Origin: Psammoneis japonica
Taxonomy: Eukaryota
DNA length: 64,000 bases
Assembly (NCBI GenBank): GCA_008632985.1
Contig: QPGO01000039.1
Location: 434,001-498,000, forward strand
Direction: 5' to 3'
Made by a program: the position numbers and the translations under genes. A model generated the notes under the pieces. It was not told where the DNA came from. It did not search any database and worked only from the letters and a program-made list of their open reading frames with translations. Of this stretch, positions 5,591-59,281 are shown in pieces. Position 1 is the first letter of the stretch. Every line of letters starts with the position of its first letter.

Positions 5591-5789
5591 GCGAGCAACG
5601 ACAAAACTGAGAAAATCACATGCAAAAGTGCGTTCTTTTTGCAACTTGCCTTTCACAAAGTGACAGGAAAGGATGGAAGTTCCAAACAAGAGGAAGCCAT
5701 GGGGAAGGCAAAAAAAAAATGGAGGATGCGGTTCTCACAGGAGTGACGGAGGGAAGAAGTGTAACTTCCAGCGGCAAGTGAGATTGAGA

Positions 5790-20244: not shown

Positions 20245-20430
20245 TGTAATCCAGAGTTACTGCTCTTATGAAAGAGGCTTGCATCGAGTGTCTTTGGAGT
20301 CGTTGCCTCTGGGGATCTTCATCATGGGCATGCTGTTCGGTGTGTGTTGTGTGTTGTGTGTTTGGTGATATCGGAGTCCCGCTCGTGAATGAAATGCGAG
20401 CGTTGACCGATGCCGCGTCCGTCCATCAAA

Positions 20431-29368: not shown

Positions 29369-31845
29369 TCAATCATTCAATGCACTGTCCAGAGCCTCCA
29401 GCAAGTACTTTTTCCGCGCTTTCAGACCGGACTTCATGGACGAATCCTTAAATAACACTTCATTCCATTCCCAGCACGGCACAGACACAAGAGGGTAATC
29501 CTCTGCTCGTGCTTTCAAAAGCTGGCGATGTTTCAACATGGTGGACCCGGTTGGTGAACGGTCATTGCCAAAGCGACTCGGTCTATCTATCGCAATGCCA
29601 ACCTTTTTCCCTTGATAAGTCACAACGGCTTCGAGGCTGTAACCGATGCTCGTAATGACTTGTTCAGCGACATCGAGATCGAGCTCAGATACCAGTACAT
29701 TTACCACATCCTTTTGCAGTTCCGAAGGTTTGCCTTGTTGAGCCACAAACGCTTCACGACATTTTTGGAAAAAGTCTGAATCGAACTGCAAAGGAACACT
29801 GTGTTCTTGAAACCACAACTGAACTTGATAAAGTAGTCCAAGCTCTTCCGCTAAGAATAAGGAGGCTCTTGAATTACAAATTTCAACAAATTTGTTGTCA
29901 AGCAACTTGTCGCAACCATAATCAAAAACAGCAAACGCCCAAGCCGTGTTGGCGAGTTCCTTTGTCGAGAAGGTATCCCACTTATGAATCGATGCATCCG
30001 CAATAGCATCGAAAAGTAAAGGCGAAGAATACCCGATAGTAGCAAAAGCCCATGCTGTATTGGAAACGTCTTGTGAGTCAAACCTATCCAATTTTGGTAT
30101 TGCAGTGTTGGCTATGGCATCCAAAAGAAATGGTGCCGAATGTCCCATAGATGCAATCGCCCACGCAATATCAGCAAGGGCCCGCGGAGTGAACTGCTCC
30201 AACTTTTTTATTGACTTGCGCGCAATTGCGTCAAAAAGTACGGGCGACGAGTGGTCAGCCGTTGCAAATGCCCAAGCTGTATTGACTAGACCTTGTGAGT
30301 TGAATTCATCCAATATCCCAATGGATGCGTCCGCAATAGCATCAAAAAGTACCGGCGAAGAATGTCCGATAGTCGCAAAAGCCCAAACTGTATTGGCAAG
30401 GCTTTGGGCGGAAAAGCTGTCCACATTCCGAATGGATTTATCCGCAATCGCATCAAAAAGTGACAGCGAAGCGTGTCCCATACTTGCAAACGCCCAAGCC
30501 GTAGTTGAAATTCCCTGGGAACTAAACGTATCCAATTTTGCAATGGACTCGTTCGCGAGGGCGTCAAAGAGCTCGGGTGCAGCAGCGTGTCCAGCAGTAG
30601 CAAATGCCCATGCTGTATTGGCTAGTCCTTGTGAGTTGAACCGATCCATTGTCAAAACAGATGCGTTGGAAATAGCGTCAAACAGCACCGGCGACGAATG
30701 CCCAATCGTTGCAAAAGCCCAAACAGTATTGGCAAGCTCTTGTTGGTTGAAGTCTTTCAATTTCGGCATTGACACGTCAGCAATAGCGTCAAAGAGCAAC
30801 GGTGACGGATGCCCAATTGTTGCAAAAGACCAGACTGTATTGGCCAGGTTTTGAGTGTTGAATTCATCCAGCTTTTGTATGGATGCATCCGCAATAGTGT
30901 CAAACAGCAATGGAGACGAAAATCCAAGAGTTGCAAAAGCCCAGACTAAATTGGCAAGTTCCTGGGGTTTGAATGCATCAACTTTCTGAATGGATGCGTC
31001 TGCGATTGCGTCAAACAGCAGCCAACATGACGATGATTGTCCCGTTGTGGTGGCAAATGCCCAAGCCGTATTGGCCAGGCTTTGGGGGGTAAAGTCGTTT
31101 ATGGTTGCAATGGAAGCTGCAGCCAAGTGCTCGAAAAGCTTAGTAGAGGGATGCCTTACTTTTGCAAAAGCCCACGCGGTCCTTGCTATATCGGCTTGAG
31201 CGAGATTGCATGCTAGCAGTCGTTTTCCAATTGTTTCCAAATTTCGGAACCAAAATCAAAGGTACTGGATAGCTTTGCAAGGCCATTTGCAATAGAGCCA
31301 AGCGATTCCGGGGAAAACACGTCTACATCCTGCATGGTGCGTTGAAGCAATCGTTGTATCGCTTTTTCGTTGCTTTGAAAGTTTATTCGCTCCGTCCTGT
31401 TTCTTGATACGATTGCTGCGATGCGATTCCAACAAAGTGACACATCCTTTGGGCTCATCTTGTCGCCGTTGTCATCGCACAGGTCAAGCACGTCCTTGAC
31501 TCTGTTGATGGTTCGAAGATTCGGAAGTCTCCAACGTTGGTTCTTGTTGTTACTGCTGCGACGTTGCGTAGGTGGTAAGGGTGTCTCCAGTGTCACAAGA
31601 TTGCGTTTCGTGACGACATCATCTCGCGCAAAGGGGGCGTTCGTATGTGCTCTTCTAAACACCAACTGCACGTTAAAACTTTGACAAACATCATGGTGGT
31701 CGTTTCCAAAATAACATCGACAGCCAATCGGTGCGAATCCAACAACAAGCTCCGACCGCAACGTCCGTCGTGCCCTCGCAGTCCCCATTTCTTGCGGTCC
31801 GCGGTGCTGCACGACCTTTTTCAAAAAGTTTTGGATCATGAACAT
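29369..31845 (-). CDS. RAP-domain 37-aa-repeat protein, paralog 3 (frameshift near 31235; altered RAP motif)
   Basis: N-terminal NQRWRLPNLR...MSPKDVSLCWNRIA shared with the paralogs; 623-aa repeat ORF; RAP region reads YSLEA...IAIDRPSRF. Start codon uncertain. Confidence 0.88.
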
Positions 31846-39273: not shown

Positions 39274-40239
39274 TCCACATCATGGCAATCTATCAAAAGC
39301 AAGAAAAATTCAACCTCGTTCGGTCCGTCATCCGTCCGTATAAACTACTAAACAGCACACGCGCTCATCACCGCAACGATAAAATTGTTGAAAAACCCGG
39401 AGATTGGCCATCCCGTCGTCCGCCCTCCGCCCGGTCATGGTTCTGGACTCCTTTTTATCATTGACACTCGACCATGGTGCCGCTCCGCTGTAAACGGCTC
39501 GCTTTTCATGCTCTTGCTTGATTGTTCACTTTCGGCAATGTAGACTGGTTGCTGGTCATGGGAAAGCGTTTCTTCAGCGCCATGGCAAGCCGCTGCCGGG
39601 AGCCGACGATTGATGAACGACGAATGCCAACATGCTCTGGATTCGCCACAGCATGCTGTCCCGCCCCTTGCACCCTCTGTTGGAGCATAAGTACTTCGAG
39701 TCCCATTGAAAATAGAAAGGACGACGCTCTAAGACACATTCGATCACATTCTACGGATGGGCAGCAGGCTATTTATCCTGTCGGACCACAACGATAAGGA
39801 GACAGATCGACAAACGGACAAGCAATCATAATTTGCGAACTCCAACAAATCCGCGATTGCACATCAGTATCATTTCTACGGTCAATGCATATATTTGAAA
39901 TCATGTCCAGTGATGCTCAAGACTCCCATTCAGGCTGCAAGGGTTTTTGATCCAGTAGGCTTGTATGATCATTCTACTACTCAATCTGTTAAATGTTAGA
40001 GGGTAGACGTCGAAATTGCGAAGCCTGGTTGCCGTGTAGAAACTACTTCTATGTTGATCGCAGTATTGTGAAACAGTCAAGCACAAAACAACAAACCTCT
40101 TCTTGTGTAAGTAGTAACAAATAACGCTGAACTGCAATCGACTTAGATACATGCATTCATCTCCATTGCTTTATCTCTATGAATTTCTGTTTTCCAGGTA
40201 AAAGCGCAAAGCGATCAAGTCAACAAAGAAAACTGAATA

Positions 40240-41629
40240 ATGAAGACCATCATCTTTGCTGTGGCCGTGGCTAGTCTTATCTCTTGCCATGGCGTACATG
40301 CATACTATCCCGAGGGATTTGAGACAGTCACTTGCGAGTACGAAGAGTCTCTCGAGAAGTTAATTGAGGCCGCCGAGGACATCCCAAATTATGTTGATCC
40401 ATGGAACGTCCAAATGTCCTGGAACATGATTTACAATGCGAGAGACGCAAAAACGGAGATCGAGGCTGGAGACGCACTTGCGTCACTTGAGGAGCTCCAA
40501 GCAGTGACCTCATGGGCCCGAAGGATTATCGAAAGAGAGAATTGTCAGACGCGTTACTGTTTGAAAAACCTACATGACATTAGTCAACAGGCTAGTGACG
40601 CGGCCATTGAATTGCTTGAAAGGATGCTCGTGGATATGGCCTATATTATAGGCCCAACCTCTCGTGTCTTCGGCCTGGATGAAGAAGCTCGAAGCCACCG
40701 AGACGGGAGGAGATGGTTTGAATCTGTGTGGACTGTTCAGCGAGGCGTCAGCCTCATACTTCAGCTTATCGGGGAAACTGAATTACCTGTTTGCGATGAT
40801 TATGATGGGATCCCTACGAGCGCTCACTATCCTAACGGCTTCTGCTATGGCACCCCCTTTACTCTGAATGGCAACACGGCAGATTATCCTCGCTACCTGG
40901 GTTTTCAGGATCAGTGCGCCATGCGCTTGACTCCCGACGAACGGGGATATCGTGCTTCATCAGCCTTCATGCGGATGAGAATGAAAGAGGGATTTTCCTT
41001 CTCTGCGCAGTTGGGGTATCGCATTTTTGGTGATCGTCATGGCCAAGGCGATGGAATGACATTCACAATGCACCAGGATCCTCGCGGCGTAAAAGCGCTT
41101 GGGTTGACAGGCGGTGCGCTGGGTGTGTATTCCGAATCATCGCAGTCGTCTCACATTCCCCCGATTTCGCCGTCGCTTGTCGTCGAGATGGACACACGTG
41201 AGTACAGTGTTGATTCGGTCGTTTCCCTTTAAATTGAAAATGAACGTCCAATCCGAACGATACTGACTCATTTCGAATTGCTTTTTGATCCAGAAAATAA
41301 TCCTGGGTATGGCGACAGGGGCGAATACCAAATTCATGTCCTACTCGTCCACACAGGAGGTCATCGCGAGCATCTTGCCCAGGAAAGGCTTACTTCCATA
41401 CAGGACAGGAATCACAGGATCTCTTCTAGTCTTGTATGATGGAGAAAGTTCGACCCTCAGGGTGCGTCACACATCAGATGACTATTTTCTCAGACGTCCA
41501 GTCATCACGACCCATGTAAACTTAGCCAGCTTCTTCACGGGTCGCCAAGTTTTCGTCGGTGTCACTGCAGGCTCGTGGAACTTTGCTGTTGACAATCAAG
41601 ACCTCACGTCTTTTACCTTCTCCCAGTAA
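40240..41629 (+). CDS. Secreted protein with N-terminal helical region and L-type (legume-like) lectin domain; intron ~41198-41293
   Basis: Signal peptide; GDGMTFTMHQDPRG..ALG..GGALG, LVVEMDT, VFVGVTAGS; GTGAGT...CAG intron; apparent frameshift near 41395. Confidence 0.8.
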
Positions 41630-41710
41630 ATGGGTTCACACCATTCATGTCCCCGTGTTCTAATTTCCCAGCCACGGGGATTCATGACACGTTACGTCGT
41701 GATGCGACCA

Positions 41711-42225
41711 TCTACATCCAAGAGATCTATACATCCCTGGAAACGGGGATTCATGAGACTTCGTTTACATTCTTGTACCTTGGAATCTTTCTGTCAGTTT
41801 AAGGATTCATCAAGGTTTACATATTCGGCTCCTTCGCTTCTACATCCAAGAAATCTATATCTCTCTGGAAACGGGGATTCATGAGACTTCGTTTACATTC
41901 TTGTACCTTGGAATCTTTCTGTCAGTTTAAGGATTCATCAAGGTTTACATATTCGGCTCCTTCGCTTCTACATCCAAGAAATCTATATCTCTCTGGAAAC
42001 GGGGATTCATGAGACTTCATTTACATTCTTGTACCTTGGAATCTTTCTGTCAGTTTAAGGATTCATCAAGGTTTACATATTCGGCTCCTTCGCTTCTACA
42101 TCCAAGAAATCTATATCTCTCTGGAAACGGGGATTCATGAGACTTCATTTGCATTCTTGTACCTTGGAATCTTTCTGTCAGTTTAAGGATTCATCAAGGT
42201 TTACACATTCGGCTCTTTCGCTTCT
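41711..42225. repeat. Tandem array, 4 x 128 bp
   Basis: ggaaacggggattcatgag recurs at 41739, 41867, 41995 and 42123. Confidence 0.95.
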
Positions 42226-42460: not shown

Positions 42461-43463
42461 GGGCCACAGCACAGTACGTTGAGAGCGGAGTGCAGCAACA
42501 CAACTGCTCTATCACTCTTTCTCCACTACCAAGAGAGAGAGAGTGCTAACAGCGCTTTTTCGCGAGCGAAAACACCAATGACAGGGGCACTCCACTAGAA
42601 GCCCGCAATGGGCCGGCAGACAAAGCGACAATTCAGCCATCTCAAAACTGAAAAATGGCACTAAACGAACAGAGAATCGGCAGCAAATTTTAAATGCAGC
42701 GTGCATTTGATCTGTTTCTCCCTCTGTCCTTTGTCCAGTGCAGAGGGAGTCAACATTTGACAACCATGATGCTGGTTGCCTGGCAGCAGTTGTTTGCTTG
42801 TCTTTTGTGTTTTCAGCAAGAGAGCAGTTGATTTGCTTGCAACATCACTTGTTCCATGACCCACACTCTCTGCCAGACTGGACAAGCTGCAGTCTCTCTG
42901 GTGGGAACCTGCTCTCTCCATTTTCTGGAGTTGGACATGGCAACTTGCCGGAACAGAAACTCCAGCACTCCGGAGATGGCTCTCTTGCTGTGCCAGGCAG
43001 CCGGGTTGCCCGCCTGTGCCCAGGTGCACACACACACGCACCCTCCCGTGCAAGCCTGCCTGCAATTGCCAGCAATCAGTGCCTGCTCTCCTTGTCATTT
43101 TTTGTTCCTTGCATGTCAAGATGACATGATGATTGAGCATCTCTCCCAGAGATCAAGGTCCAGAGTTGTTGCTGGTGACAGATGGGCAGCCCACACCACA
43201 CAGGCACACCATCAACAAATTCTTGGTTTGCAACACAGCACATGGAAAACTGGAAAATGTTTGAAAACACAGGAGAAGAACTGGAAAGCCCCACAACCAG
43301 GCTTTGATTGCAGCTGCTGCATGATTTGTGCATCTCATGGCTGGCTGGAGGAGACACGGTGTGCCACCCATCACTTGCTTTTGACAGCACCAGGAGATCC
43401 TGGCAGGTGCCCAGTGCAAGACATCCAATGCAAGAAAATGTGTGCCATCTTCAAAAGGTGTGG

Positions 43464-44640
43464 TGCAACACACAGCTGCCAACAAGAGTTGGTGCATCAC
43501 GGCGACGTGTTGCAGCCTTTAAATGTCACAAAGGGCGTGACAAAAACAACCTTTTGTCTGCATGCATGCTGCGCTGTGAATTCAAAGCGGAGTGGTTCAT
43601 CTCGCAACCATCAGGCAGGAGGCCAGGGGTTCGAAACCCTGAGTGGGAGTTGTCTGCAGCAACGTTGATCACTGTCGAACGCGCAAAACTCTGTGCAGTT
43701 CTGTGTGTTCCTTCGCACGCACCCACACTGTTCCGCCAAAACCGTGCAGCGTCAGTGCACGTCAGCAAAGAGCCGCATGGACGCGTGACACATGGGGAGG
43801 AGTGCAACACACAGCCACTGACAAGAGTTGGTGTGTCACGGCGACGTGTTGCAGCCTTTAAATGTCACAAAGGGTGTGACAAAAATGACCTTTTGTCTGC
43901 ATGCACACTGCGTTGTGAATTCACAGCGGAGTGGTTCATCTCGCAACCATCAGGCAGGAGGCCAGGGGTTCGAAACCCTGAGTGGGAGTTGTCTGCAGCA
44001 ACGTTGATCACTGTCGAACGCGCAAAACTCTGTGCAGNNNNNNNNNNNNNNNNNNNNNNNNNNNNNNNNNNNNNNNNNATCCTTGCCAACACTGAAGAAG
44101 TTGCAGCAGCTGAGCCAAGCATCTTGCTCTGCACCCAGCAACCTGAAGAAGCCTCTGCCTCCCAGGGAGCAGGGACCAAACAAGAAGGCATCTCTTTTTG
44201 TGCTGCAAATGCAACCCCACTGCAGTGTGCATGCAGACAAAAGGTCATTTTTGTCACGCCCTTTGTGACATTTAAAGGCTGCAACACGTCGCCGTGATGC
44301 ATTGACTCTCATTGGTGGCTGTGTGTTGCACTCCTCCCCATGCATCACGCGTCCATGCGGCTCTTTGCTGACGTGTGCTGACAGCGCAACACACAGCTGC
44401 TGATGAGAGTTGGCGCATCACGGCGACGTGTTGCAGCCTTTAAATGTCACAAAGGGCGTGACAAAAATGACCTTTTGTCTGCATGCACACTGCAGTGGGG
44501 TTGCATTTGCAGCACAAAAAGAGATGCCTTCTTGTTTGGTCCCTGCTCCCTGGGAGGCAGAGGCTTCTTCAGGTTGCTGGGTGCAGAGCAAGATGCTTGG
44601 CTCAGCTGCTGCAACTTCTTCAGTGTTGGCAAGGATTGGG
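43464..44640. repeat. Direct (~339-bp period) and inverted repeats surrounding assembly gap 44038-44078
   Basis: tcacggcgacgtgttgcagcctttaaatgtcacaaaggg at ~43497, ~43836 and ~44418, and inverted at ~44260-44297; 44079-44330 is the reverse complement of ~44390-44635. Confidence 0.85.
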
Positions 44641-46250
44641 CTGGTGACACAATCTCTTGGTTGTTGCAGTCACTTCTTTAGCTCAACTGCAGGCAGGCAC
44701 TGGCACCAGTTTCTCAAAGAACACCAGTGCTCTCCACAGCCTTGTTCTGAGTCTTGTTGGCTTGCTTCTCTCTGTGACATTCTGTGCTGCATTGGTGCCA
44801 TGTTGAAACTTGACTCCTGTCTCCTCAACCACACAGAGCAGAGGTCTGTGACACATGCTGCCTTTTTGCATGGGAAGTGTGGCCAGCACTGGTGTGTTGT
44901 TGCTGGTTTGCAACAACAAGTCCTCAGTTGATGCAGTGCATCACATTGACCCCCTTCTGCTGGCTGGAGAGCCTCCACCCTCAAAGCAGGACAGAGAATC
45001 AGACTTTTTGTCAGCGCCACTTCACTTGACAAATGCTCTGTCATCACCAGACTGGGATCTCATTGATGAAATTTGTGGTGCGCTGAAAGATGTCAAGCTT
45101 CACAAAATTGCAGTGGCCTCCAACTTGTGCGTGCTGCTTGAGTGGATGAAGGGTCACCCCAGGAGATTGTCAAACCCCATTTCAAGCCCCTCCACTGAAA
45201 GCACATGTCAGTGTTGGAGCAGACAAGATTGCTGGCAATCCTCAAGGCATGCACTCCTTTCACCCAATCAAGCTCACACTTTCCAAAACTTTCTCATTGC
45301 TCTTGGCATTCTCACCGCAGCCAAGCACATCTGATGTGTGGCCATGGCTCCTCCTTTTGGTGGCGGGCATGAGAGAAAAGCACTCTCACAAGCAGGCTGC
45401 ACTTGTGGCCAAATCAACCTGAGCCAAGGCATGGCACACTGCTCTCATAAACTTGCACATCCAGAAAAACAAGTGTCAACTGTGAAGCTCATGATCCACA
45501 ACCTTCTTCTTGCCAACAATGCAACCAACAGAAGGTTCCAACACACCAGCCAGTTGAGGAAGGAAGTGCAGCTTCCCAGCCCATGACAGGAGAAGATGCC
45601 ACAGCCAGGTTCAAGCCATGCAACTTTGCATGACCGTGAAGCTGGCAAAAAACTTCTTCATGGACAACAGCTCAGTTCTTTCAGTGTCTCTGTGTTGTGC
45701 ATGAGTGGTGTTTGCAACACACTGAGCAGAACAGTTTTGCTGCCAATGCTTGAGTGCAGCCACCTGCGGAGGAGCAACATTTCCTGGTGCTGGTTGCTGC
45801 AGGTGCTGTCTCATTGTGCAAGCAAAGAAGAAAACATGTTGGGTGAGACTCACAGTGGATGTGCTTGGTCCAAGCAACTTTGAGTTCGCAGCTTCCCAAC
45901 ACAGTGAATGTGTTTTCTGCAGAGAAAAGTGGGGTGTCCTCATCCTGGTGTGGCTGTTCAATCTTTGATGAGTTTTTTGAGAGTGTTGACAAGGTTGTGA
46001 GGTCAAGGTGAGCCAAGTTCTTCAACCAGCAAAGGGTGGGACAAGCACTTGAAACATGGCTTCACTGCTGCTGCAGCGGTGTGTGCATGTTTGACAAGAA
46101 GAGTTTGATCACCTTCCTCCATGCTGTTGTTTGACACAGCATTGTGGGATGGTGTGGGCACCCCACCAGTTGAGTCACTTTTGATGACTCCAGAGGGGGG
46201 ATCCACTCCACTTTGGTCTTGAGGAAGAAAAGCTTGCTGAAGAAAGCCAT
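44640..46250 (+). mobile_element. Relic 3' part of an RNase H-containing non-LTR retrotransposon
   Basis: Ordered RNase H-like motifs: CSESCWLASL (RxE), VCNNKSSVD (CDN with CG->CA), PDWDLIDEI, WMKGH, AHVSVGADKIAG; then VKLMIHNLL. Confidence 0.6.
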
Positions 46251-47210
46251 CAACTCACATCAGTTGAGTCACTTTTGATGACTCCAGAGGGGATCTACTC
46301 AGCTCTGGTGGGTGACTGAGCTCTGAGAAGTGGAGCAGCACATGACAGAGAAACACACCAAATGACACTCACAAAGTCTGCAGCACAATTTTTCTCATTT
46401 CCACAAAATGTTGCAAGGTCAGATTGCTTGATGGAAACAAAAGATGGACTTTCTTCCACCCAAGAACCTGTTTAGAGTGCAGCTGCTGGTCTAAACTGCC
46501 TGGAACGACAAGGGGGCAAGAGCCCACCCTGTTGCAAGCACAAACTGTGAGCAGGGAAAGGCCACACCAGCTAAAACCAAATTGGCTGTGTGTGCACCAG
46601 TGGAGAGATGTGCTTGCTGCACTGAAGCCTTCAGCTCAACAACATGAGTCACTGTTTTTGTTTTTTCTCTTTGCTTTGCTGCCATGGACATCTTCTGCTT
46701 GGTGCTGGCCCATCAAATCATGACACACCATGTGCCATTTGCTTGCAGACAGCTCTCCAGCTCAGTGACTTTCATGCCTTGCGTTGCATGACCCAATTGT
46801 TCTCTGAGTCTCAAACATTTGAGACTGGGACAGAGGACCAACTCATCAATTCTGATGGTGACTTTGGTGTGGTTGCATCATTTTGCCTGCAGCAGTCAGC
46901 TGGCATTTGCTCTCCACAACAGCACACATGGGCCAGGCGCAGCTCTGATGGTGGCAGTGCTGCTGCAGCTCCTTCTCCAATGGCAACTTGAGCATGCTCC
47001 CCACATGAGCTGCAGCCACGCCACTCATCAAAGTGCAAGTCTTTTGCTCACATGCACTTTTGAGCCATTGTTGTTGGGGATCAAGAAAAAACACTTTTTT
47101 CTTGCAAAAATGGTGCATGTGCCACCAACCAGCATCATGTCTGAGAGCAGAGCAATGCAGTGTGGCAGGGCACTCCACCACTCCACCCCAACACTTGAAA
47201 CTGAAGATCT

Positions 47211-47582
47211 TGCACCATGCTTGAAGAACAAGCATGAATGAAAGCAAAACGAATCACGAAAAGTGAAAATTGTGAGATTAGATTTTGTTCTAAGATTTGG
47301 GTTTTTCCAAAGGAGGTCTTGATGGCCTGAAGCAAGCTTTTGTGCTGCTTCCACTGACCAGGGGCCTCATGGAGAATTAGATTGTGACAAGAGATTGTCC
47401 AGATGCAAGCAACATTGATGTGTCATCATCATCATCCAACTGCACTTGCAATGTTGACATCCTGTCACATCTGTGTGATTGATCTGTCCTTTGCACGCAT
47501 CCACGATTGTGGCATGATGGACATGTGCAATGACACAATTGCAAATGTGTGTGTTTCCTGCTGATTGACAATGCATGCTGCA
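47211..47582 (-). repeat. 3' LTR
   Basis: tgcaccatgcttgaagaacaag...atgcatgctgca; matches 51187-51565. Confidence 0.9.
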
Positions 47583-50500
47583 CTCACCTCCCTGGTTGCA
47601 CATTGGAGTCATTTGCCAAATGGTGTGATTTGACAGATGTTGACAGTGTCAACAACGTCTCCGCGTTTGATCTGCACCTTGCCACCAGTGTGTGCCATTG
47701 ACATTTTGCAGGGTCCAGCACAGGACTGTTCTAATTTTTGAGAGTCATTCTTGAGCAATGTCTTTTCTCCTGCCCTGTGGGGGCAAGGAGTGTGTTGAGC
47801 ATTTTCTTGGGCATCATTTCTGTTTGTGATGCTTTGTTTTCATTTCTGAACAAATTTCCAGTCAGCAACGTGTGTTGGACATTGAACATCATGACTTGAT
47901 CAAAGACTGGTTGTTCTGGTGCAGCTTGCACAGCAGTGTGACAAGTGGGAGCATTTTGCAGTCAAATGTGCACAGCATGTTGCCCAGCACTTGATGTGTG
48001 CTCTCAATGATTGCAGCGGCTTGTGGATTTCATGCAGTTGTGGGCGCTTGCACTCAATGCCATGGTCATCTTGGACCACATTTTTAAATTGATGTCCAAT
48101 GAACTTGCTTCCACAATCACAAGCAATTGACAATGGCCAAGGACATCTGCTTGACCACGTTCATTCCAAGAGTCCAGCAACAGTTGTGGATTCCTCATTT
48201 GGAATTCCCCCACAACTTCAAACAAACACTGGTTGCTGGATCTGTTGTTGTCAAAAGGGTTTCTTTTTCCCTTTGCAATGCATCTTGTGTGCAGTCCAAT
48301 GAGATCCACGTGCAGTCTTTCCCATGGCACTGCTTCTGTGCACTTGGGGGGCAAATGTCGACATTTTTTTTCTTTTTGAATTTCTGGCACGTCTCACATT
48401 TCAACATGCATTTTTGCATGTCTTCTCATGTGGGGCAGACCACCACAAGTGTTGCAAGATTGTCTCTTCTGTTTGATTTCCATGCCAGGGTGCAGAAGGT
48501 GTGCATGACACCAGTCCATCACCACATTTTGCAATGTCTTTGGCACAACAATTTTTTCCTTGTGACACATGAGCAATCAATCTTCTTCACCTCCACAAAA
48601 AGTCTTCATGTGATGTGTTGCATCAAACAATTTCAAGAGAATGTCTTTGTGCCATTTTTGTTCAGTGTCAAGAACTTTGCATGTTGACTGAAAGACATTG
48701 TTGCAGGATTCAGGAGCTGCCTTTGCTGTCAATTTTCAGAGCTGAGGTTTTCACAGGGTTCTGTTTGTTTCACAGCAAGTTGGCTGATTGCATCTGTGAT
48801 GATGTTGGCCTTGCCCTTGAGGCAAATCATTTCAGGACTGCATTTTTCTGTTGTCAGATGCCAGTGCATGACTCTGTCCACAAATTTCCACAGGGAGTCT
48901 GCAGTGCTCACATTTGCCCTGTGGCATCACCATCATGTGCAACCAACGTGCATGTGGTGTTGGCTTGATGTGATGATGTCCCACACTCAAATCAAGTGAC
49001 GTTGCACACATGAAGCCCTTGAGCTTCTGTGGCATGTCTTGAATGTTGGGTGGGGGGGGCATGGAGTGCACATTGACCTCTGACTCAGCTCACAAAAGTG
49101 GGACAGAAATCAAACTCTGCCATTTTTCTTGGATTGAACAAAAGTTGGAGCTGCCCACTCTGAGTGCTCCATTTTCCTTGAGACTCCTGGCATGCAGAGT
49201 CTTTTGACTTCCTTTCAAGCGGTTGCCTCCAAGGCTTGTGGAACCAGAAATGGCTTTGCATGACATGGTGCTGCCCCCATTTCAACACAAGATTGACCAG
49301 TTTTCCAGTCCACATGCCTGAGGAACCATCAAAAAGATTTTCAAATCTTTTTTGGAGAATGTCTGTTGCTTCTGTTCCTCTGGAGTGAGGTGAGTTGCTG
49401 CTGCAGTCACATTGTTGAGGTTGGCAGCATGATGGTCAGCATCAAGGATCCTGTTGACCCTGGCATTGAGATTTTTCATGGCATGAGATTCCTCAATGTG
49501 ATTGGCAATCAGCTTGAAGACCTCTGCATCAATGAACGCACCCCCACATCCTTCATTGGTGCAGTTGCATCTTCCAATTTAATTTCTGTGTGTTTGTGAA
49601 ATTGAGTGTGATCCCAAGACTGCTCATCAAGTTGCTTCTTGTGATCACATCATGTCGGCTTGAAGAAGAAGGAGTGCTGTCCACACACACAGTCTTCTCA
49701 ATCATTTTGTGCGCATCCAATTCAGGCATTGAGAACTGTGTTTTGCATTTGCTGTCAGCTGCAAAGAGCCCTCCCTTGGTTTGCCAAGTGTTGGTGGCGG
49801 ATTCTTTAGTTCTCAATTCCCTCATGAATTTGTTCAAAAGTCAACCATGTCTGATGATGTTCCATTGTCAAGAAGAACATGCAGAGGCTCATTTTTCTCC
49901 TTCCCCAAGGAAGCATTCATGTGAGCGATGGCTGACGGACTGGCATGAGTTGTTTTTGCCTTTTTCCAGGCTTTCTGGTGTCTAGTGGTGCATGTGACTT
50001 GTCAACAGACCCCAGTCATTTCTTGGATTCACTGCGTGTCATCCAGTCAAATTGGTGGTTTTCTTCACTGAGGGTGTCAGCATCAGATTCTTCACCATTG
50101 CGGTTTTTGTCACCCTTCAATGAACTTGCTTTGAGAGTTTTGTTGGCTGCTTGAGCAACTGTCACATTCAATCATTCCTTGTGAGAGACATTTCCATTGT
50201 TGCAATGCAACCACGTGCAATTGCCATTCTGATCTTGCTGTTTTGGGTTCTGCTCAGAATTCTCATGGTGTTCCTCAGCCACTCTTTTAATGACTCAGCA
50301 TTTGTCTGCATTGTGGGTGGTCTTTTTGCAGCAGTTGCACCACTTGTCAGACTCAGGATGTTTGGTGCCAGATGGGCGACCATTTTTGGGACCACTTTGA
50401 GATCTGCCTTTGGTTCTGGAATCAGGCTTGCTGTTGGCATTGCCCTTGACATGAACAGCATCAAAGATGTCCCCTCTGCAACCTCCAGACATTCCAAAAA

Positions 50501-51186
50501 ACTCAACCAACTTGTCAAAGGCATGGTCAAAATTTCAAAACCTTGTGTGGTTGACTGACAATGCCATTTGCAAGGTCCAAGGTTGCAGTCAATGTCCTTG
50601 CTTGAGCTCATGATCTTCCTCAAGCTGTTGGTCGTTTTTGAAGGGAGGACAGAACTTGAAGTCCTCTTTGACCTCCTGAGTCCATGCAGCAATTTCTTGA
50701 ACCTTTGTCAACTCTGGTTTCTTGAGATCACAACACAGACACTGTTTCTGGTTCTGAAGTGCATTCTTTGGGAAGACATGAGTTGAGAGATGATGCAGGC
50801 ACTTTTTGAAGGCTTTTTTGGCTTCTTTGTTCAAAGAGCATCTCCATGCAACAACACATGCATGAGTCAAAATTCATTGGCTTGCTTCCAAATGTTCTGC
50901 CCCACCAGGACTTGGCCACACGTCTTGAGGAATTTGGTGCACTTGGGGACTCCTTGTTTGTTGCAGCACTTGACATTGACTGTGTGTGGGCATGACTCTT
51001 TTTGTCCTCTGGGCAAAAACACTGTTCCATCTTGAGAAGCTGACTCAGTTTGAGCATCTTTGGCTTGGAGATCAACTTCAATGGCATTGAAGCAATTTTC
51101 TCCTGCTTGATGGAAGACTTGCCAGCTGCAACATGAGGTGAAAGTTTCAATTTCATGTTTTTACCTTCTGTGGTGTGCATGCACAA

Positions 51187-51565
51187 TGCACCATGCTTGA
51201 AGAACAAGTGCAAATGAAAGCAGAATGAATCACAAAAGTGAAAATTGTGAGATTAGATTTTGTTCTAAGATTTGGGTTTCTACAAAGAAGCTCTCTCAAT
51301 GGCCCAAAGCTTTCACACTGCTTCCACAGACCAAATGCCTTGCAGAGAATTAGATCATGATGACAGATTGTCTGGATGCAATCAACATTGACATCTTGTG
51401 TGTCATCATCATTGTCCAATCACACTTGCAACATTTGACATCCAATCACATCTGTGTGATTGATCTGCCCTTCATGCGCATCCACAATTGTGGTGTGATT
51501 GACACACACAACAATGTGCAATTGTGAATGTGCTCATTTCCTGCAGCTTGTCAATGCATGCTGCA
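51187..51565 (-). repeat. 5' LTR
   Basis: Same termini and internal gtgaaaattgtgagattagattttgttctaagatttggg as the other LTR. Confidence 0.9.
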
Positions 51566-52664
51566 ATCTGGATGATTGGAAAGTCGTGCTGGGATCAATC
51601 AGCAATGGTGGCCTCTCCTTGGTCCTGTTGCACTTTGAAGCCATGCTCTCTGTGAGAAAATGGCACCCCCACCTGGCCCCACACACTTTGCACCACCAGC
51701 AGCACTTGCCCATTTCCTGAAACACAAACCTGCTCAGAGGCTCAATCACAGGTGGATGGCAGGAGAGTGTTGCGTGGGTCAAGTTTTAGAGTCATTCTTG
51801 TCCCAATGGGCATGGAGCTGCAAGTTGATGTGTTGTGAAACTCATCATGTGGCACATGTGAGTTTTGCAGTTGTTTTCCAAACCAGGCCTGTGGGAAGCA
51901 TTGGCCACTTGTCTTTCTTTGTGGGTGAGCCACCGTTGCATGCTGCATTGCCTGTGTGTGCGTGTGCCCCCCTGCCACCAAGGCTGGCATTGCAGTGGCA
52001 GGGTGGTGGGGGCACAACACTGGTGACATGGATGACCATTGTGTTTGATGGCTCGTGCCATTTTTGGGGCTGCAGGGAGGTGCACAGACACTCTTTTTTG
52101 TCCAATTTGCCACCAAAATGGCACATTGCACACACTCACTTGTCACTTGACATGTTTTTTCCAATGCAACTGTTTTGTGTGCAACTCATGACAAATTCTC
52201 TTTGTGCAAAGCCCAGTGCATTTTTCAACATGCCATGCCACCAATCCCAATTTCACAGCACTTTCAAGCTCTTCTAAAAAACTTCTCCATGCACCCATCA
52301 CAGGGAATTTGGTCAATTTTTTGGCAAGTCTCCACAACGTCCAATGTCCTCAATGATCATTCTCTGAATCTGAGCAATTTGTTTGCACCAAACAACATGT
52401 GCTGTTCCAAAATCCAAGGGACACACTTTCAAATGGCAGCTGAGGACACCCCAACCAGCTGCCCGACTGCATGACCAACTGCATGACCCCCACCCCAAAG
52501 GATGTGAAAAAGTCTGCAATCACCAACCACTGAGTGGTCAATTGAGAATCAGTGTTTTTCATTGCAGTGCCCTGATGACAGCAAGATGGAACCCAACACT
52601 TGGTGTGTGCGTGAACGCACTGCAGGCATCAACACAAAATTCTGCACACAACAATGACTCTCTG

Positions 52665-55475
52665 AGCTTGATCATGGTCAGTGCTGCTGCTCAGCTCTCA
52701 ATGACAGCTTGCTTCTCATGCTCTTGCTTGGTGGCTCACTTTTGGCACTGTGGGCTGATTGTTGCTGGACAGGAAAGTGCTCAGGCAGTGCAGTGCCAAC
52801 CCCCACCAGGCTCCAACCACTGGTGAACAATGAATGCCAAGATGCTCATGATGTGACTTGACATGCCGCAGCATGCTGTTCCCTTGCAGATCCCCTTGCC
52901 ACCCTCTGTTGGAGCACAAGCACCACAACTCCTGTTGAAAACAGAAACAACAACACATCAAAATGCACTCCATCATGTCCTGTGGACTGAAAACCAAGCA
53001 ACTTCTCAACTTCTCCTGAAGCTGACAATTGATGACAGATTGACAAACTGACAAGCATTGTTGTGTAATTTGCAAACTCCTGCAAATGGTGCATGTGATT
53101 GCACATCAGAATCATGTCTGCAGTCAGTGCATTTTTGAAATCATGCTTGGTGACACTCAAGATTCTCATTCAGGGTGCAAGGGTTTTTGATCCAGTGGAC
53201 TTGTGTGATCATTCCACTGCTCAATCTGTCAAATGTCAGAGGGCAGATGTCAACATTGCAAAGCATTGTTGCCATTGTAGAAAGTGTGTTGACAGCAGCA
53301 TTGTGAAAGAGTCTCACAAAAAGCAGTCAAGCACAAAACAACAAGGCTCTTCTTGCACAAGCAGCAGCAATCATCGCTGAACTGCAGTTGACTTAGAAAC
53401 ATGCATTCATCACTTTGTCTCTGTGCATTTCTGTTTTCAAGGCAAAAGCACAAGCAATTGAGTCAACAAAGAAAACTGAATGATGATTGCCACCATCTTT
53501 GCTGTGGTTGTGGCAAGTCTTCTGTCTTGCCATGGTGTGCTGGCTTTCTTCCCCAATGGATTTGAGATGGTCACTTGTGAGTGCATTGATTCTCTTGAGA
53601 AGCTAATTGATGCTGAACTGCAATTAACTTAGACACATGCATTCATCTCCATTGCTTTGTCTCTGTGCATTTTGTCATCCAGGTAAAAGCACAAAGCAAT
53701 TGAGTCAACAAAGAAAACCAAATGACAAAGAGCATCACCTTTGCTGTGGTTGTGGCCAGCATTTTCTCTTGCCATGGCACACAGGCACACTTTCCCAAGG
53801 GATTTGAGTTTGTCACTTGCAAACACAAAGAGTCTCTCAAGAAGTCAATTGAGGCCGCCAATGGTTTCCCAAACTGCAATGATCCGTGGAACGTCCAAAA
53901 CTCCTGGCACATGATTTGCAATGCAAGAGATGCAAAAATGGAGATCAAGGCTGGAGATGCACTTGCATCACTTGAGAAGCTCAAAGAAGTGATCTTGTGG
54001 GCCAGAAGGATTGTCAACAGAGAAAATTGTCCAACAGATGACTGTGCAAGAGCCCAGCATGCTGTTGACATCAGCCAACAGGCCAGCGACATGGCCTTTG
54101 AATTGTTTGCATCATTTGACTTGTTCAAATCATTTTGCTTGCATTTGGACAAAGACATGCACTGGCTTGTAGACCAGAAGCTTCAACATGTGTTGCACAA
54201 CCAAAGGTCAGGAAATGGTGTGAACCTGTGCAGGCACTCCTGGACGTTGTCAGCATCTTGCTTGAATCCATGGGAGAAAGCACTGTCCCCCCTTGCATTG
54301 AAGTCACTGATGTGGACCATCCTAATGGATTCTGTGATGGCAATCCATTTGCTCTGAATGGCAACAACTTGGCAGATTGTCCTTGCCAACTGGGTTGTCA
54401 AGATCAATGTGGCACATGCTTGACTCCCAACATTCCCAGCATTTGTGCTTCATCAGCCTTCATGTTGATGAAAATGAACAAGAAGTGTTCCTTTCACACA
54501 GAGGCAGGGCATTGCACACATGGTCAAAATCAAGAAGGCAATGGCAATGGAATGACATTCACAATGCACCAGGATCCTTGTGGCACAAACACACTTGTGT
54601 TTTCTGGCAGTGCTCTGGGTGTGCATTCCTCAGCATGCTGCACCAACCACAAGATGTGTCAGCTGTTGCAACAGTGCTTTTTGTCAAAATGGACGGGTGT
54701 GAGTGAAGCACAAACTTGGTTGTTTCCTTTTTTGTTGAACACAGGAAATGCATTCCAGCCAAAACTGATGCATTTTGAATTGCTTTTGCTGCAGATTGCA
54801 ATCCAGAGTGTGGTGACAGTGGCGGATGCTGAATTCATGTGCAACTTGTGGATGAAGATGGTTGTCACCAAGAACTGGCCCAGGAATGGGCTCCCATTGG
54901 TACAGGGGAGCATTGCATGGGACATGTTTGGGTCATCTGTGATGGAGAAAGTTGGGCTCTCAAGGTGCATCATGTGACAGATTCACACGTTGCTCCCACA
55001 CATCCAGTTGTCAGCATGACCTGCACAGACTTGGCCAGCTTCTTTGTGGGCAACCAGGTTTTTGTTGGTGCCACTGAAAGCATGTGGACCCATGCTGACT
55101 GTCAAGACCTCAAGATGTCTCTTGCTTTCTCCCAGCAAATGGGATCACCTGTGGTGCATTCATGCCCCGGTCTTCTCTTTCCCAGCCATGGGGATTCATG
55201 ACATGTTTCATCATTCTGCAACCACCATCCACATTCAAGAATCTAAATCTCCCTGGAAGCGGGGATTCATGATGTGCAGTGTGTCATCTGCATTTGGGTG
55301 CCTTGGAATTCTTTCTTCAAAGTCAAGGATTCATCAAGGTCTGCATGTTTGGATCCTTCACTTCTCTTCCTAAGAACAAACAAATGTGACGTTGCATCTT
55401 CACTTCTGTCCATTTTAGTTCCATGATTTGGACAACATGCATGTGACGGTCAAAGTTGCACAATGCACTTCACAT
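52665..55475 (+). pseudogene. Hypermutated copy of the lectin locus (39465-42350) including upstream, intron and downstream DNA; 5' part duplicated (~53378-53614)
   Basis: Colinear homology, e.g. MTKSITFAVVVASIFSCHG vs MKTIIFAVAVASLISCHG and GNGMTFTMHQDPCG vs GDGMTFTMHQDPRG; frameshifted; stop TAA->CAA. Confidence 0.93.
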
Positions 55476-55499
55476 TGTTGGCACCTGCTCTGGAGGTGG

Positions 55500-58400
55500 C
55501 CACTCTAGCTGGGTGCTCTCTTGGTGTTAGAAATCACAAGTGTGTGGCTGTTTTGCTTGGCAGATGACTCAATGAAGGGGCACTCAATGGGCACAGCCAA
55601 AGTGACAATTGTGCCATCTCTGCAAAGAAAAATGGGCACAAAACAAACATGGAAATGGCAGTGTTTCTCCATTCTTGTTGTTTGTTCTGGTGCACCAGAG
55701 GGGGGCTTCAACATTGACAATCAATGACAATGATGATTCCTGATTCATGTGGTGCTCTTCATCCTCGTCCCAGACTCACTTCCCTGGCAACAATGCCGCT
55801 GATGGGTTGCTTGCTGCAGCAGGAGGACAGAGAGCATGCAGGCAGACATTTCCATCTGCAGTTGGGTGGGATGAATCAACAACTGAATGCCCACATCAGA
55901 CGTGCTTGAGTTGAGCAGCAAATGAGGGCAGCAGCCATGTTTGGAGTTGATCTGCACAAGACACTGCTTCTTGTGTGCCTTCAACAACTCTGGTTTGTTG
56001 CTGCTGCAACCTTCTGATCTCTCTTTTGCTGACCCACTTCTGGAGCCAACATGATTGGCATCATGTGTTGCTTGCTCTTCTGACTTGGCCTGATCAGTGA
56101 TGTGCTTTGACATCAACTGCAAGCAGCCCACATCCCTCAGAAAGCCTCAATGCCATTGCAAAAGAGGCTCCCCATGCTGCCTTCCTGTCACCACCTTGTG
56201 CAGCACACACATCATGAACAAGGCTGTTTTTGTAATTTTGCTGAAGAAGCTCCCCTCTGCCTGTGGACACTCTTCTGTGCCACTGCTGATGAACACTCCA
56301 GCAATGATGTGTTGTTGGCTGGAGTCAATGACCATGCACCCCGCTGTTCTCAGACCAGCTTGATGTCTGATTTTGTTCTGCCACTGCTTGTCAGTCAATT
56401 GTGCCTGGCAAAGGCAGCACAAGACTGCCAAGGGATGATGGTCAGAGACATCTTAGATGCTGCATCTCTGCATGTCTCCATCTGAGATCTGCTCATGTTG
56501 TTCTTGCTGTCCCTGGCTTGCAGAGTGCAGTTCTGGGTTGATTGTTGGCAGGGGCTGTTGCTGCCATGTGTGACAGGTTTTGGCCTCACTCCAGACCTCT
56601 CACACATGTTGTTGAGAGCAGGTCTTGCTGACACCCTCTGACAACATGCCATTGATTGCCACACTGACTCATCATTGTTTTGTGGTGAGCTGCACAAGCC
56701 CACATTTTTGTTTTGATCAGCAGACTTTTTTTGTTGAGTCTTGACTTTTTTTGGGATGCACAGATCAGCAGCACTGGCACCTTCTGCAAGTTGCAAGAGC
56801 AAAAGTTGAGTGCGCCTCTGCCATGACAGGGCACAAGCCTTTTGCAGTTGTTTCTAACACCCTCAGAGAGACTTTGAAAATGTTTGTCAGAACAACTCCC
56901 ATGTGCCTGAAGCCACAACATCCCTGAGCGACACCTGCAGTGACTTGGTTTGTGGACTGGTTGGAGCAATCTTCAAGAGAGCACTTTTCTCAAAAGGCAC
57001 AAGCACTCCAATGGATGGCAGCTCATCTTAACTTTCAAGACAGATGCATGGTCACAAGATCAAGGTGGACCTCAAGCCTTGCCAAACAAAAGCACTCATT
57101 TCCAATTGGTGCATCATGCATCCACTTTGCTCCTGGCATGACACACACACCAACTTGGCCAAGATCTCCAGCAACCCTCAGCATTCTCATCCAGGGTGCA
57201 AGCCTTGTGTGATCATTCCACTGTTTTGTCAACTTGCACTGGCAATGTGGAGCAGTGTGCAAAGCCGTTGATGGAAAAACAAGTGCATGTTGTCTCTCAT
57301 GCCAAAAAGCCAGTGGCACTGGTCTGGGTTGTGTGGCTGCAGCCACATTGCCTGTCATGAGGTGCTTTCCAGAAGGACAAGAGAGCACATCTTCTGGAGC
57401 TGAGGAGTGTGTGCTCTCTTTTTTGAACAGCATGCAAAGCCTTGTCAAGCTCACCACAAGAGAAAACCAAGGAAGGTTGCTGAGGAGAGAGCAACGATGT
57501 GTCTCATGAGAAACCTGGAGACTGGCTGTGTTCCGCATCTGTGCTGCATTTTTTAGATCACTTGTTTGTCATTGTTTTCATTGGGGAGCCTCCATCTGAT
57601 GCTGAAACATTGCAATCTGCCAGTTGTTGCTGCCATGAACCGCAAAGTGCTGCTGGCAAAAGATGCCACAGCCATGGCAACAATGCACTGGGCATGCAAC
57701 AGAGACCCTTGGGCCTTCTGGCTTCACATCAACCATCACACTGGGGTGGGTGATGTTGAGTCTTAAGAAGCCTGGAAGGCTTTGGATGAGAGGAAGCTTG
57801 CAATGCCAAAAAAGAAACAGCTTCTCCAAATGGTGCTTGAAAATCAAGCAGCAACCACACCGGATCTCCACACTGACTTTGGGTTGACAGCTTTTGAAGC
57901 TAGCCTGCAAGCTGCTCAATTCAAAGAAAGTGCAAAAAGGGAGTGGCCAACCTCTCTGTGAGTGGAGGAAAACCTCAGCAGACAAACATGCAGTGAGGGC
58001 AGACACAAAGAACTGTTTGTTGGAAGCAAAACAGGTGGGCCTTTCAGCAGACTTTTTGAAAGTTTCATTGTTGCTTGTTGCAAAATTCCTCCAAGATGAC
58101 ATTGGCAGGATGACGCATGCATTTGCCCATGTCCTGAAACCACCAGCTCTGTGAAATGAATCATTTGGCTTTGACTGCAGAAAATGGAAAAGTGTGAGGC
58201 AAGTGAAGCTCATTGTTGGCATCTTGATGAAGCACCAAACCCAAAATTTTGGCACTGGCTCTGTTGCATCTGGCACAAGAAATTTGCTGCTTGCTGTGGC
58301 ACTTTCCTTCAGTCTCTTCACTCCCATCTTGTTCAAGTTGCCTGGAGCTCTGGTGGCATCAGCATGAGCTCATTGTGATGCTGCTCTGTTTCACACTGAT

Positions 58401-58990
58401 GTTTGATCACAAGTGCTCATCTGAACAGCAAATTTGTTTCACGGTGCTCAGCACTGGTGTGGCCACTGTTTTGCACCAGGAGAGTTGCCCTCTCTGACAA
58501 AGCACAGGAGATAAGGAGGGCACTCCTGCTCAGTTGCTTGTGAAGAGGCTGGTTGTGCCATGCTTCAGTGGGTGTAAACCTCTTGTGCTTCCAAAGCACA
58601 AAAACAACAGGGAGTGTGCCACTGGAGAAAAACAACTGAATGTGGAAAAAAGGAGCATGGAAGGAAACTGCAAGAAGGATGACAGGCCTGCTGGCACACT
58701 CTCAACAGCATGGGGTCAGAAATTGCAGCTGTGGCAGTGATCAGCTGAAGCTGCCATTGGAACAAAAGACCTTCCCAAGTGTTTTGGATTGCCTGAAATC
58801 TTTGTTTCCAGCAAGAAATTGTTGCAAATGAATCATTCTCAAGTTCAAGTGCAGAGCCCTCAGCATTCTCACAGCTCCCAGTTGAACCATGTTGATGTGC
58901 AGCTTTTGCCACACAGGGGACACATTCTCAATTTTCTGCACTTTGCCACTCACCACTCTGTGCTCCATCTGACTGCTAATGGCTGGCAAT
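55500..58990. mobile_element. Unclassified decayed element; possible tyrosine-recombinase fragment near 56100-56180 on the minus strand
   Basis: Minus frame reads ASFAMALRLSEGCGLLAVDVK, resembling YR box I (LRxxE...L...DV); nothing else recognised. Confidence 0.3.
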
Positions 58991-59281
58991 GTGTATTTTG
59001 CCGCAGTGAATCTCGCGGCGCCTCGGATTGAAATGCGTCAATTTCGGAGGTCTCCTAAAATCGATGGACAAGTCAGTGATCTGAAAAATGCAGCGATCAA
59101 AAACATAACCTTCAATCCCGTTTCAGTCATGACAAGAGAGCTCGTTTTGTGACAACATACAGTAGTCGTAGATACGGTACGTAGAAGTGTTAAACTCTCC
59201 ATTCAAGGCAAAAGCAACACCAATCGAGGAGAAACCAACGGTGGAGATACAAGCACTCGTTAATAAAGGAGGAAGTCATTA

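Follow-up and report, generated by a model that had tools for sequence, protein, structure and literature searches.

The two LTRs of a dead retrotransposon in the diatom Psammoneis japonica differ largely by paired substitutions, in which one LTR carries CA where the other carries TG, and these doublets very probably arose after insertion, when CG and TA were converted to TG or CA on either strand, independently in each LTR. The window analyzed is a 64,000-nucleotide stretch of contig QPGO01000039.1 (assembly GCA_008632985.1, positions 434,001 to 498,000, forward strand), and all positions below are counted from its first letter.

A repeat search gave four collinear direct-repeat pieces at a spacing of 3975–3983, and alignment of the left and right repeats with MAFFT identifies them as the LTRs of one minus-strand element (table 1). 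They are bordered by an ATCT target-site duplication, a 4-bp match at fixed places that has a chance of 1/256. Judging from its sequence, the element is a dead Ty3/gypsy-type LTR retrotransposon. Its reverse-transcriptase (RT) fragment has 114 relatives at E≤0.001, and the long ones among the seven that were scanned carry protease, RVT_1, RT_RNaseH, Integrase_H2C2 and rve, in parts of that order; by eye, the integrase remnant adjoins the 3' LTR. Pfam gave no relevant match for the element's 16 minus-strand ORFs, and the sole match at E≤0.1 among its ORFs, a RepB C-terminal domain (E 0.092), was rejected as unrelated. When the integrase ORF served as query in a word-index search of proteins 70–226 aa long, five candidates came up, none of them at E≤0.001. 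Reading of the sequence beside the 5' LTR revealed no primer-binding site of the TGG type, self-BLAST found no second copy of the element within the window, and a degenerate LTR pattern had 0 matches among metagenome contigs.

Table 1. Positions of the retrotransposon's parts, the segmental duplicate and the surrounding tract in the window.
Feature	Position	Strand	Remarks
Left repeat, 3' LTR	47211..47582	-	plus strand starts TG, ends CA; CG 4, TA 3, TG 54, CA 38
Right repeat, 5' LTR	51187..51565	-	TG..CA ends; CG 1, TA 4, TG 49, CA 49
Target-site duplication ATCT, left	47207..47210	.	equals 51566-51569
Target-site duplication ATCT, right	51566..51569	.	read from sequence
Polypurine-tract-like 11-mer	47583..47593	-	10/11 purines on minus strand; directly upstream of 3' LTR
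Putative gag remnant, CX2CX4HX4C zinc knuckle	50295..50534	-	ORF; motif by eye; no Pfam match
Reverse-transcriptase fragment	48835..49089	-	relatives by protein search
Putative integrase-core remnant, three frames	47900..48393	-	by eye only; no Pfam match
Converted copy B of 3-kb segmental duplicate, including lectin-like gene	52682..55376	+	inside tract
Unconverted copy A of 3-kb duplicate	39475..41852	+	intact 331-aa lectin-like ORF; proxy for starting state
CG/TA-poor tract holding the element	42600..59000	.	TG+CA doubled, CG and TA nearly absent; borders sharp to 100-200 bp

A first-pass annotation had described paired CA/TG differences between the LTRs and quoted three of them; all three were found (47233–47236/51209–51212, 47513/51494 and 47494/51475), and alignment and counting of the whole LTRs bear the description out. 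The LTRs mismatch at 69 of 367 aligned columns (57 transitions and 12 transversions; moving the left LTR limit to 47585 gives 370 columns and 70 mismatches), and 46 of these 69 positions are accounted for by 23 CA/TG doublets, which lie among 92 columns at which both LTRs have YpR. When equal numbers of transitions and transversions were scattered randomly on the left LTR, doublets averaged 2.19 and never exceeded 8 in 20,000 trials. Adjacent mismatch pairs are likewise in excess: 34 are observed, whereas 10,000 shuffles averaged 12.5 and never exceeded 24. The left LTR has CA and the right TG in 9 doublets, and the reverse holds in 14 (binomial p 0.40).

The direction of change can be read from a 3-kb segmental duplicate, one copy of which lies inside the same tract as the element. 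With copy A, which has normal composition, taken as ancestral in this two-copy comparison, 97 of its 130 CG sites are converted in copy B (50 to CA, 47 to TG) and 4 are kept, and 62 of its 93 TA sites are converted (34 to CA, 28 to TG) and 7 kept. Both outcomes are thus obtained from both dinucleotides, as had been proposed when the doublets were first attributed to a TA or CG ancestor that changed on one strand or the other. Conversions no more than 10 bp apart had the same outcome in 46 cases and different outcomes in 29, and strand-coordinated runs of conversion in the duplicate were not significant (70 runs where 80.2 were expected; z -1.62, P 0.06). Codons of the element's RT fragment tell of TA in particular, and all five of its consensus-Tyr columns now hold Cys or His codons (TGT, CAT, CAT, TGT and CAC).

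Family copies of the element in other contigs give further, more scattered indications. At 80% likeness or more, 1268 contigs matched, with a summed depth of 340–3900 against about 63 in the flanks; the comparison covers 40 of 825 variable places, all with a share of at least 0.86 and including few of the 23 doublet sites, and contig strings were compared by eye. Among these 40 places the family has a near-unanimous G after C where the element has CA at 48403, 49246, 50045 and 51155. The doublet with TG at 47441 and CA at 51421 is CG in one family contig, two sites that are CA in each LTR are TA in a low-depth contig, and at position 51362 the family has A in 93% of depth, which is compatible with TA or with a mixture of TA and CA. 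At the first of the three quoted examples, one less-converted contig, again compared by eye, has CATG as the left LTR does, and so that site, for which the first-pass annotation had offered TACG as an example of an ancestor, may, on this sequence, have begun as CATG.

These observations suggest the following course of events. The two LTRs would have been identical when the retrotransposon inserted, and ordinary in composition (about 20 CG and 15 TA per 372 nt). Later, two dinucleotide-specific transition processes would have acted on double-stranded DNA in the tract at about 42.6–59 kb: CpG would have gone to TpG or CpA, most likely via deamination of 5-methylcytosine, and TpA to TpG or CpA via an A:T>G:C change, of a kind that has been measured directly in Bigelowiella natans (see below) and is here presumably the work of an enzyme acting on TpA. 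Since both targets are self-complementary, either strand could be struck, and each LTR would acquire TG or CA at random, independently of its partner; roughly half of the sites that had been CG or TA would therefore come to differ between the LTRs, one having CA and the other TG, which is to say as doublets. By a slower route, an ordinary transition would turn CA or TG into CG or TA, and quick resolution, half of it to the opposite form, would add a few doublets more.

This scheme predicts the doublet count closely. The starting composition that we infer for the LTRs was assumed from neighboring normal DNA, mostly genes, which gives an expectation of 20.3 CG and 15.1 TA per 372 nt, and the left and right LTRs retain 4 and 1 CG and 3 and 4 TA, respectively. 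Erasure of CG and TA independently in each LTR, together with the slow flip, predicts 21.7 doublets where 23 are observed (P of at least 23 = 0.42). A TA-only model predicts 11.6 (P = 0.0019) and a CG-only model 14.2 (P = 0.019), and both dinucleotides are required for the observed number. It is accordingly very unlikely that methyl-CpG decay alone, acting on sites that were all CG at insertion and leaving TA uninvolved, made the doublets; conversion of CG to TG or CA is real, as the duplicate and the family contig with CG at 47441/51421 attest, but decay of this kind would not account for the 3 and 4 TA that remain in the LTRs against about 15 expected, the TA conversions of the duplicate, the lost Tyr codons of the RT fragment, or a block at 2–7 kb that has lost its TA yet kept much CG (see below).

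Flips between CA and TG do occur. Codons that never held CG or TA have changed in this way in the RT fragment, where CAG has replaced one conserved Trp codon (TGG) and CAC one conserved Cys codon (TGY); family CA has become TG in the element at 48106–7 and 48311–2; and 32 of 337 CA/TG sites in the duplicate have flipped. One might therefore suppose that the LTRs were already free of CG and TA at insertion and that every doublet is a two-step flip. The transition divergence of unaffected LTR columns is 4.3% per site, however, which would yield only about 4 flips (P of at least 23 given 4 = 6e-11), and CG and TA persist in the family contigs, so that we regard an origin by flips only as highly improbable. 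Of the 23 doublets, about 4 would have come from CA/TG sites that flipped through short-lived CG or TA rather than from ancestral CG or TA.

The erasure of both dinucleotides is also placed in time and on a substrate by what was changed. The LTRs differ from each other, both outcomes are found in both of them in the 9 to 14 proportion given above, and a non-transposon pseudogene and the flanks within the element's tract have been converted too. Editing of retroelement RNA or cDNA should favor one strand. Although transitions dominate among the mismatches (57 of 69), as APOBEC- or ADAR-like editing of the element's RNA or cDNA before integration would have it, these findings speak against such editing and we give it almost no credence. 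The first-pass annotation had placed the change in chromosomal double-stranded DNA after insertion, without strand bias, and had warned that LTR-divergence dating would be inflated, and our results agree with it on all three counts. When all columns are used, K2P between the LTRs comes to 0.227, which is 3.2 times the 0.072 obtained from the 161 columns that belong to no YpR step.

Both targets are palindromic, as would be expected of strand-dependent miscalls at symmetric modifications, and errors of assembly or base calling at modified CG and TA sites were therefore considered as well. Contigs of one public run show 0 differences from the assembly over 47485–47945, 50443–50812 and 51388–51800, and 2 differences over 47000–47304, both outside the LTR; at 47066–67 the assembly has CA and the public-run contig TG. 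These contigs were built independently and equal the assembly exactly over parts of the LTRs that include quoted doublets; however, the run is possibly from the assembly's own sample, and for that reason the agreement is not independent support. In runs X2 and X3, sampled words of the locus were next to absent. Against an artefact there stand also the 7–24% divergence of the same copies at other sites and the presence of the same Tyr to His or Cys pattern in metagenome proteins, and we consider this explanation extremely unlikely.

Like the tracts at about 7.4–15.2 and 27.8–29.1 kb, the element's tract (about 42.6–59 kb) has borders sharp to 100–200 bp, and the TA observed/expected ratio in the tracts is 0.04–0.06. 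The 128-bp tandem repeats at 41.7–42.2 kb, at 94–98% identity, have kept their TA and are untouched. In the block at 2001–7000, which includes a Plavaka-transposase-like ORF at 2651–4549, there are 3–8 TA per kb but 27–45 CG per kb, and TA erasure can thus come before CG erasure. Neighboring bases matter to both dinucleotides. When 22 kb of tract were compared with 28 kb of normal DNA, RTAY counts were 2 and 368 (tract/normal ratio 0.005) and YTAR counts 50 and 169 (0.30), while YCGR counts were 11 and 375 (0.03) and RCGY counts 46 and 354 (0.13). These flank rules are opposite for TA and CG, which suggests two separate activities, one for each dinucleotide.

The LTR pair of this single element shows CG and TA erasure after insertion, on chromosomal DNA and on a random strand, and standard LTR dating here overstates age about threefold; CA/TG doublets are a simple diagnostic of such erasure. 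Taken with the B. natans preprint, the findings suggest that TpA-directed hypermutation of invading DNA is more than a one-species oddity. It is possible, if somewhat short of probable, that the doublets are the scar of an active DNA-editing defense in diatoms, one that targets tracts of chromatin and removes both of the pyrimidine-purine steps that are self-complementary, with a TpA arm that would be DNA adenine deaminase-like, would prefer TAY, and would be related or convergent to the activity inferred in Bigelowiella. Were this so, it would hint at an "inverse RIP" immunity extending across stramenopile-alveolate-rhizarian lineages, and LTR pairs could be used as built-in stopwatches of erasure kinetics. 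The flank rule, with RTAY fastest and YTAR spared, offers a fingerprint by which candidate enzymes may be judged.

Several known systems resemble parts of this picture. Fungal RIP, in Neurospora and others, is triggered by duplication, makes C:G>T:A changes at CpA, creates TpA and mutates both copies. It resembles the present case in that transposons are destroyed where they lie by a mass of transitions at particular dinucleotides, and in that the resulting blocks have sharp bounds and a skewed dinucleotide signature; here, in contrast, TpA is destroyed rather than created, and copy A at 39.5–41.9 kb and the 128-bp tandem repeats are spared. Methyl-CpG decay of silenced transposons is well known, and CpG sites are customarily left out of LTR dating. 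It too turns CG into TG or CA on either strand, so that copies can end as TG and CA and divergence is inflated, but it leaves TA untouched, whereas the loss of TA here is as complete as that of CG and came first in some blocks. APOBEC3 and ADAR edit one-strand cDNA or RNA before integration, and ADAR prefers G after the edited A. They share with the present case a host-driven transition hypermutation of retroelements, whereas the changes described here came after integration, on both strands and in non-transposon DNA as well, and a purine after the A is protective.

Our literature search for such a process in diatoms found none, and the one publication found was a 2026 preprint on a rhizarian, B. 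natans, whose main text describes hypermutation, restricted to TpA, of integrated DNA from giant viruses and virophages, with a de novo rate about 1000 times background and only some lines active (Mettrop et al., bioRxiv 10.64898/2026.01.13.699255). That rate was measured, by the preprint's account, in mutation-accumulation lines, whereas in our diatom the end state alone is seen. The depletion is deeper here, with TA observed/expected at about 0.05 against a B. natans NCLDV region that the preprint gives as still 3.3% TpA of dinucleotides, and CpG is erased too, while the words CpG, flank, trinucleotide and diatom do not occur in the preprint's main text. Common to both, as far as that text describes B. 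natans, are an A:T>G:C change at TpA (in B. natans only at TpA) that yields TpG or CpA according to strand (10.64898/2026.01.13.699255), restriction to delimited stretches of foreign or silent DNA, and long-term depletion of TpA with enrichment of CpA and TpG, which in B. natans is found in transposon-like coding sequences as well.

A repeat search of the window returned four collinear direct-repeat pieces at a spacing of 3975–3983 bases, and the limits of the two LTRs and of the other features discussed here are collected in the table. The LTR ends, the target-site duplication, the purine-rich 11-mer and the gag, RT and integrase remnants together mark this as a decayed minus-strand Ty3/gypsy-type LTR element of ~4.35 kb. 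Inspection of the element sequence showed no TGG-type primer-binding site, and Pfam gave nothing relevant for its own 16 ORFs. Pfam scans of seven relatives of the RT fragment showed that the longer of them have stretches of the series protease, RVT_1, RT_RNaseH, Integrase_H2C2 and rve, in this order; a protein of 1004 aa spans RVT_1 through rve.

Features of the element and of the surrounding DNA
Feature	Position	Strand	Basis or remark
Left LTR	47211–47582	minus-strand element	Limits from sequence and MAFFT alignment; plus strand starts TG, ends CA
Right (5') LTR	51187–51565	minus-strand element	Limits from sequence and MAFFT; plus strand TG...CA
Target-site duplication ATCT	47207–47210 and 51566–51569		Before left LTR and after right LTR
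11-mer, 10 purines	47583–47593	minus	Directly precedes left LTR; polypurine-tract-like
gag-like ORF	50295–50534	minus	CX2CX4HX4C knuckle, motif read by eye
RT fragment, 85-aa ORF	48835–49089	minus	114 relatives at E ≤ 0.001 among 1.84 billion representatives
Integrase-like remnant	Adjoins left LTR	minus	By eye
Converted tracts	~7.4–15.2 kb, 27.8–29.1 kb, 42.6–59 kb		Composition scan
Lectin-like duplicate, copy A	39475–41852		Normal composition; intact 331-aa lectin-like ORF
Lectin-like duplicate, copy B	52682–55376		Inside third tract
Plavaka-transposase-like ORF	2651–4549	plus	633 aa, zero Tyr
Tandem repeats	41711–42225		128-bp period, 94–98% identity; just outside tract
Inverted repeat	44079–44332 and 44383–44636		Adjoins 41-N run starting at 44038
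Three paralogous genes	18421–20256, 22737–25438, 29369–31255	minus	Many 38-aa repeats of ...LANTAWAFAT... type

Alignment of the LTRs (367 columns) gives 69 differences, 57 transitions and 12 transversions, and 46 of the 69 differing positions lie in 23 doublets, that is, adjacent two-base differences with CA in one LTR and TG in the other. Random scattering of 57 transitions and 12 transversions gave 2.19 doublets on average and never more than 8 in 20,000 trials. The first-pass annotation had proposed such a count and quoted three example CA/TG swaps, all of which are found in the alignment. Neither orientation prevails (left-CA/right-TG 9, left-TG/right-CA 14; p 0.40). Both LTRs have a pyrimidine-purine step in 92 columns, of which 63 agree as TG/TG or CA/CA, 23 are doublets, three are TA/TA, one is CG/CG, and two pair CG with TG or CA. 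Only 4 or 1 CG and 3 or 4 TA are left per LTR, where the window's normal composition leads one to expect ~20 and ~15 per 372 nt, and all three TAs common to both LTRs stand in a TTAGA context. A block of ~46 nt (47259–47304 and 51234–51279) is identical between the LTRs, which overall differ in 19% of columns; it includes two of these three TAs.

The window comes from a diatom: among 120 listed relatives of its arginyl-tRNA synthetase, all legible organism names in the top 119 belong to diatoms (best hit 70% identity), and the final entry is a plant protein at 41% identity. It is made up of two kinds of DNA. Its gene-bearing parts have CG at ~1.0 and TA at ~0.55 of expectation. CG and TA together make up 2–6% of pyrimidine-purine steps in the three converted tracts versus 33–48% elsewhere, with TG and CA near 1.9 times expectation and borders sharp to 100–200 bases. 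The third tract encloses the element, whose flanks are converted as well. The second tract (27800–29100) is a 1.3-kb island almost without CG or TA that has ordinary genes on either side; its borders are sharp to ~100 bp, and its longest ORF has no Pfam family. The three paralogous genes with ...LANTAWAFAT... repeats lie in normal-composition DNA between converted tracts. The arms of the inverted repeat are identical over 222 bases, and in their last 32 bases they are set apart by two CA/CG differences, one T/C and three TG/CA doublets. Either an assembly palindrome or a recent duplicate in the middle of the process may explain this pattern.

The direction of change was read in the first place from the two copies of the 3-kb lectin-like segment, with copy A taken as the starting state: the 130 CG sites of copy A correspond in copy B to CA at 50, TG at 47 and CG at 4, and its 93 TA sites to CA at 34, TG at 28 and TA at 7, while the remaining sites are 21–24% different. 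Similarly, all five columns of the RT fragment with consensus Tyr (25 relatives) now have Cys or His (codons TGT, CAT, CAT, TGT, CAC). Four RT relatives from ENA/JGI metagenomes (P0122, P0141, P0159 and P0168) also carry His or Cys at most of these columns, and therefore similar erasure may occur in the organisms from which they come.

Since each of CG and TA is its own complement, a transition there yields TG or CA, depending on the strand it hits, and if sites were resolved independently in each LTR, half of the ancestral CG and TA would become discordant. With pyrimidine-purine steps composed as in normal DNA of the window (22.1% CG, 16.4% TA), 17.7 doublets are predicted for the 92 columns. 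There is also a slower flip-flop route, in which a CA or TG first mutates by an ordinary transition to CG or TA; resolution of that step then yields the original form in half of the cases and the opposite one in the other half. The route is directly visible in the RT fragment (consensus Trp, 18/25 relatives, now CAG; consensus Cys, 22/25, now CAC), at 48106-7 and 48311-2, where other copies of the family have CA and the element TG, and in the lectin-like duplicate, where 32 of 337 CA/TG sites differ in form between copies. At the 4.3% transition divergence of unaffected LTR columns it should contribute ~4 doublets. Assuming LTRs of normal composition at insertion, flip-flop alone (4 expected; P of at least 23 = 6e-11) falls far short of the 23 observed; erasure of TA only plus flip-flop predicts 11.6 (P = 0.0019), CG only plus flip-flop 14.2 (P = 0.019), and CG and TA together plus flip-flop 21.7 (P = 0.42).

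Other copies of the family also bear on the direction of change. The family is multi-copy (1268 contigs at ≥80% likeness, summed depth 340–3900 versus ~63 in the flanks) in a single public run that contains the locus and is possibly the assembly's own sample. Among the best 40 of 825 differences, the family reads G after C where the element has CA at 48403, 49246, 50045 and 51155. By eye, one family contig has CG at the doublet 47441 TG/51421 CA, and one low-depth contig has TA at two sites with CA in both LTRs. At the doublet 47388 CA/51361 TG, the family has A at 51362 in 93% of depth, and no equally supported change at 51361 is among the best 40 of 825 differences, a pattern compatible with TA or with a mixture of TA and CA. 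In the converted flank, 47066–47067 is CA in the assembly and TG in the run's only covering contig (depth 63.9 of 63.9); the discrepancy may reflect allelic or strain variation, or an error.

LTR dating is inflated, as the first-pass annotation had anticipated: K2P is 0.227 over all columns and 0.072 (11 mismatches) over the 161 columns outside any pyrimidine-purine step in either LTR, a 3.2-fold difference.

TA and CG can be lost separately. In the 2–7 kb block, which includes the Plavaka-transposase-like ORF, there are 3–8 TA per kb yet 27–45 CG per kb, and TA erasure is therefore ahead of CG erasure there. Their flank rules are opposite, and the one for CG is modest: in tract DNA (22 kb) versus normal DNA (28 kb) we counted 2 versus 368 RTAY (ratio 0.005), 19 versus 596 mixed TA (0.03) and 50 versus 169 YTAR (0.30), and 11 versus 375 YCGR (0.03) and 46 versus 354 RCGY (0.13; Fisher's test, RTAY vs YTAR p 4e-21, RCGY vs YCGR p 2e-6). 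We infer two separate activities, of which the one on CG is likely 5-methylcytosine deamination and the one on TA likely an A:T>G:C activity with a preference for TA before a pyrimidine. Strand-coordinated runs of conversions were tested for and were not significant. Repetition alone does not trigger erasure: copy A and the 128-bp tandem repeats at 41.7–42.2 kb, which keep TA at 10–17 per 200 bp, are untouched, which points to place or chromatin state, and not homology, as the basis of targeting.

Our literature search found no paper on such CG/TA erasure in diatoms. According to the main text of a preprint on Bigelowiella natans mutation-accumulation lines, two integrated viral regions account for 231 of 302 nuclear mutations; these are nearly all A:T>G:C, with every A:T>G:C change at TpA, and its authors suggest an ADAT2-like DNA deaminase. 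The words CpG, flank, trinucleotide and diatom do not occur in that main text (Mettrop et al., bioRxiv 10.64898/2026.01.13.699255). Methyl-CpG decay accounts for only the CG half of the changes here. Fungal RIP follows a similar logic, but it creates TpA, the opposite direction to the erasure here, and it hits both copies of a duplication, whereas here copy A is untouched.
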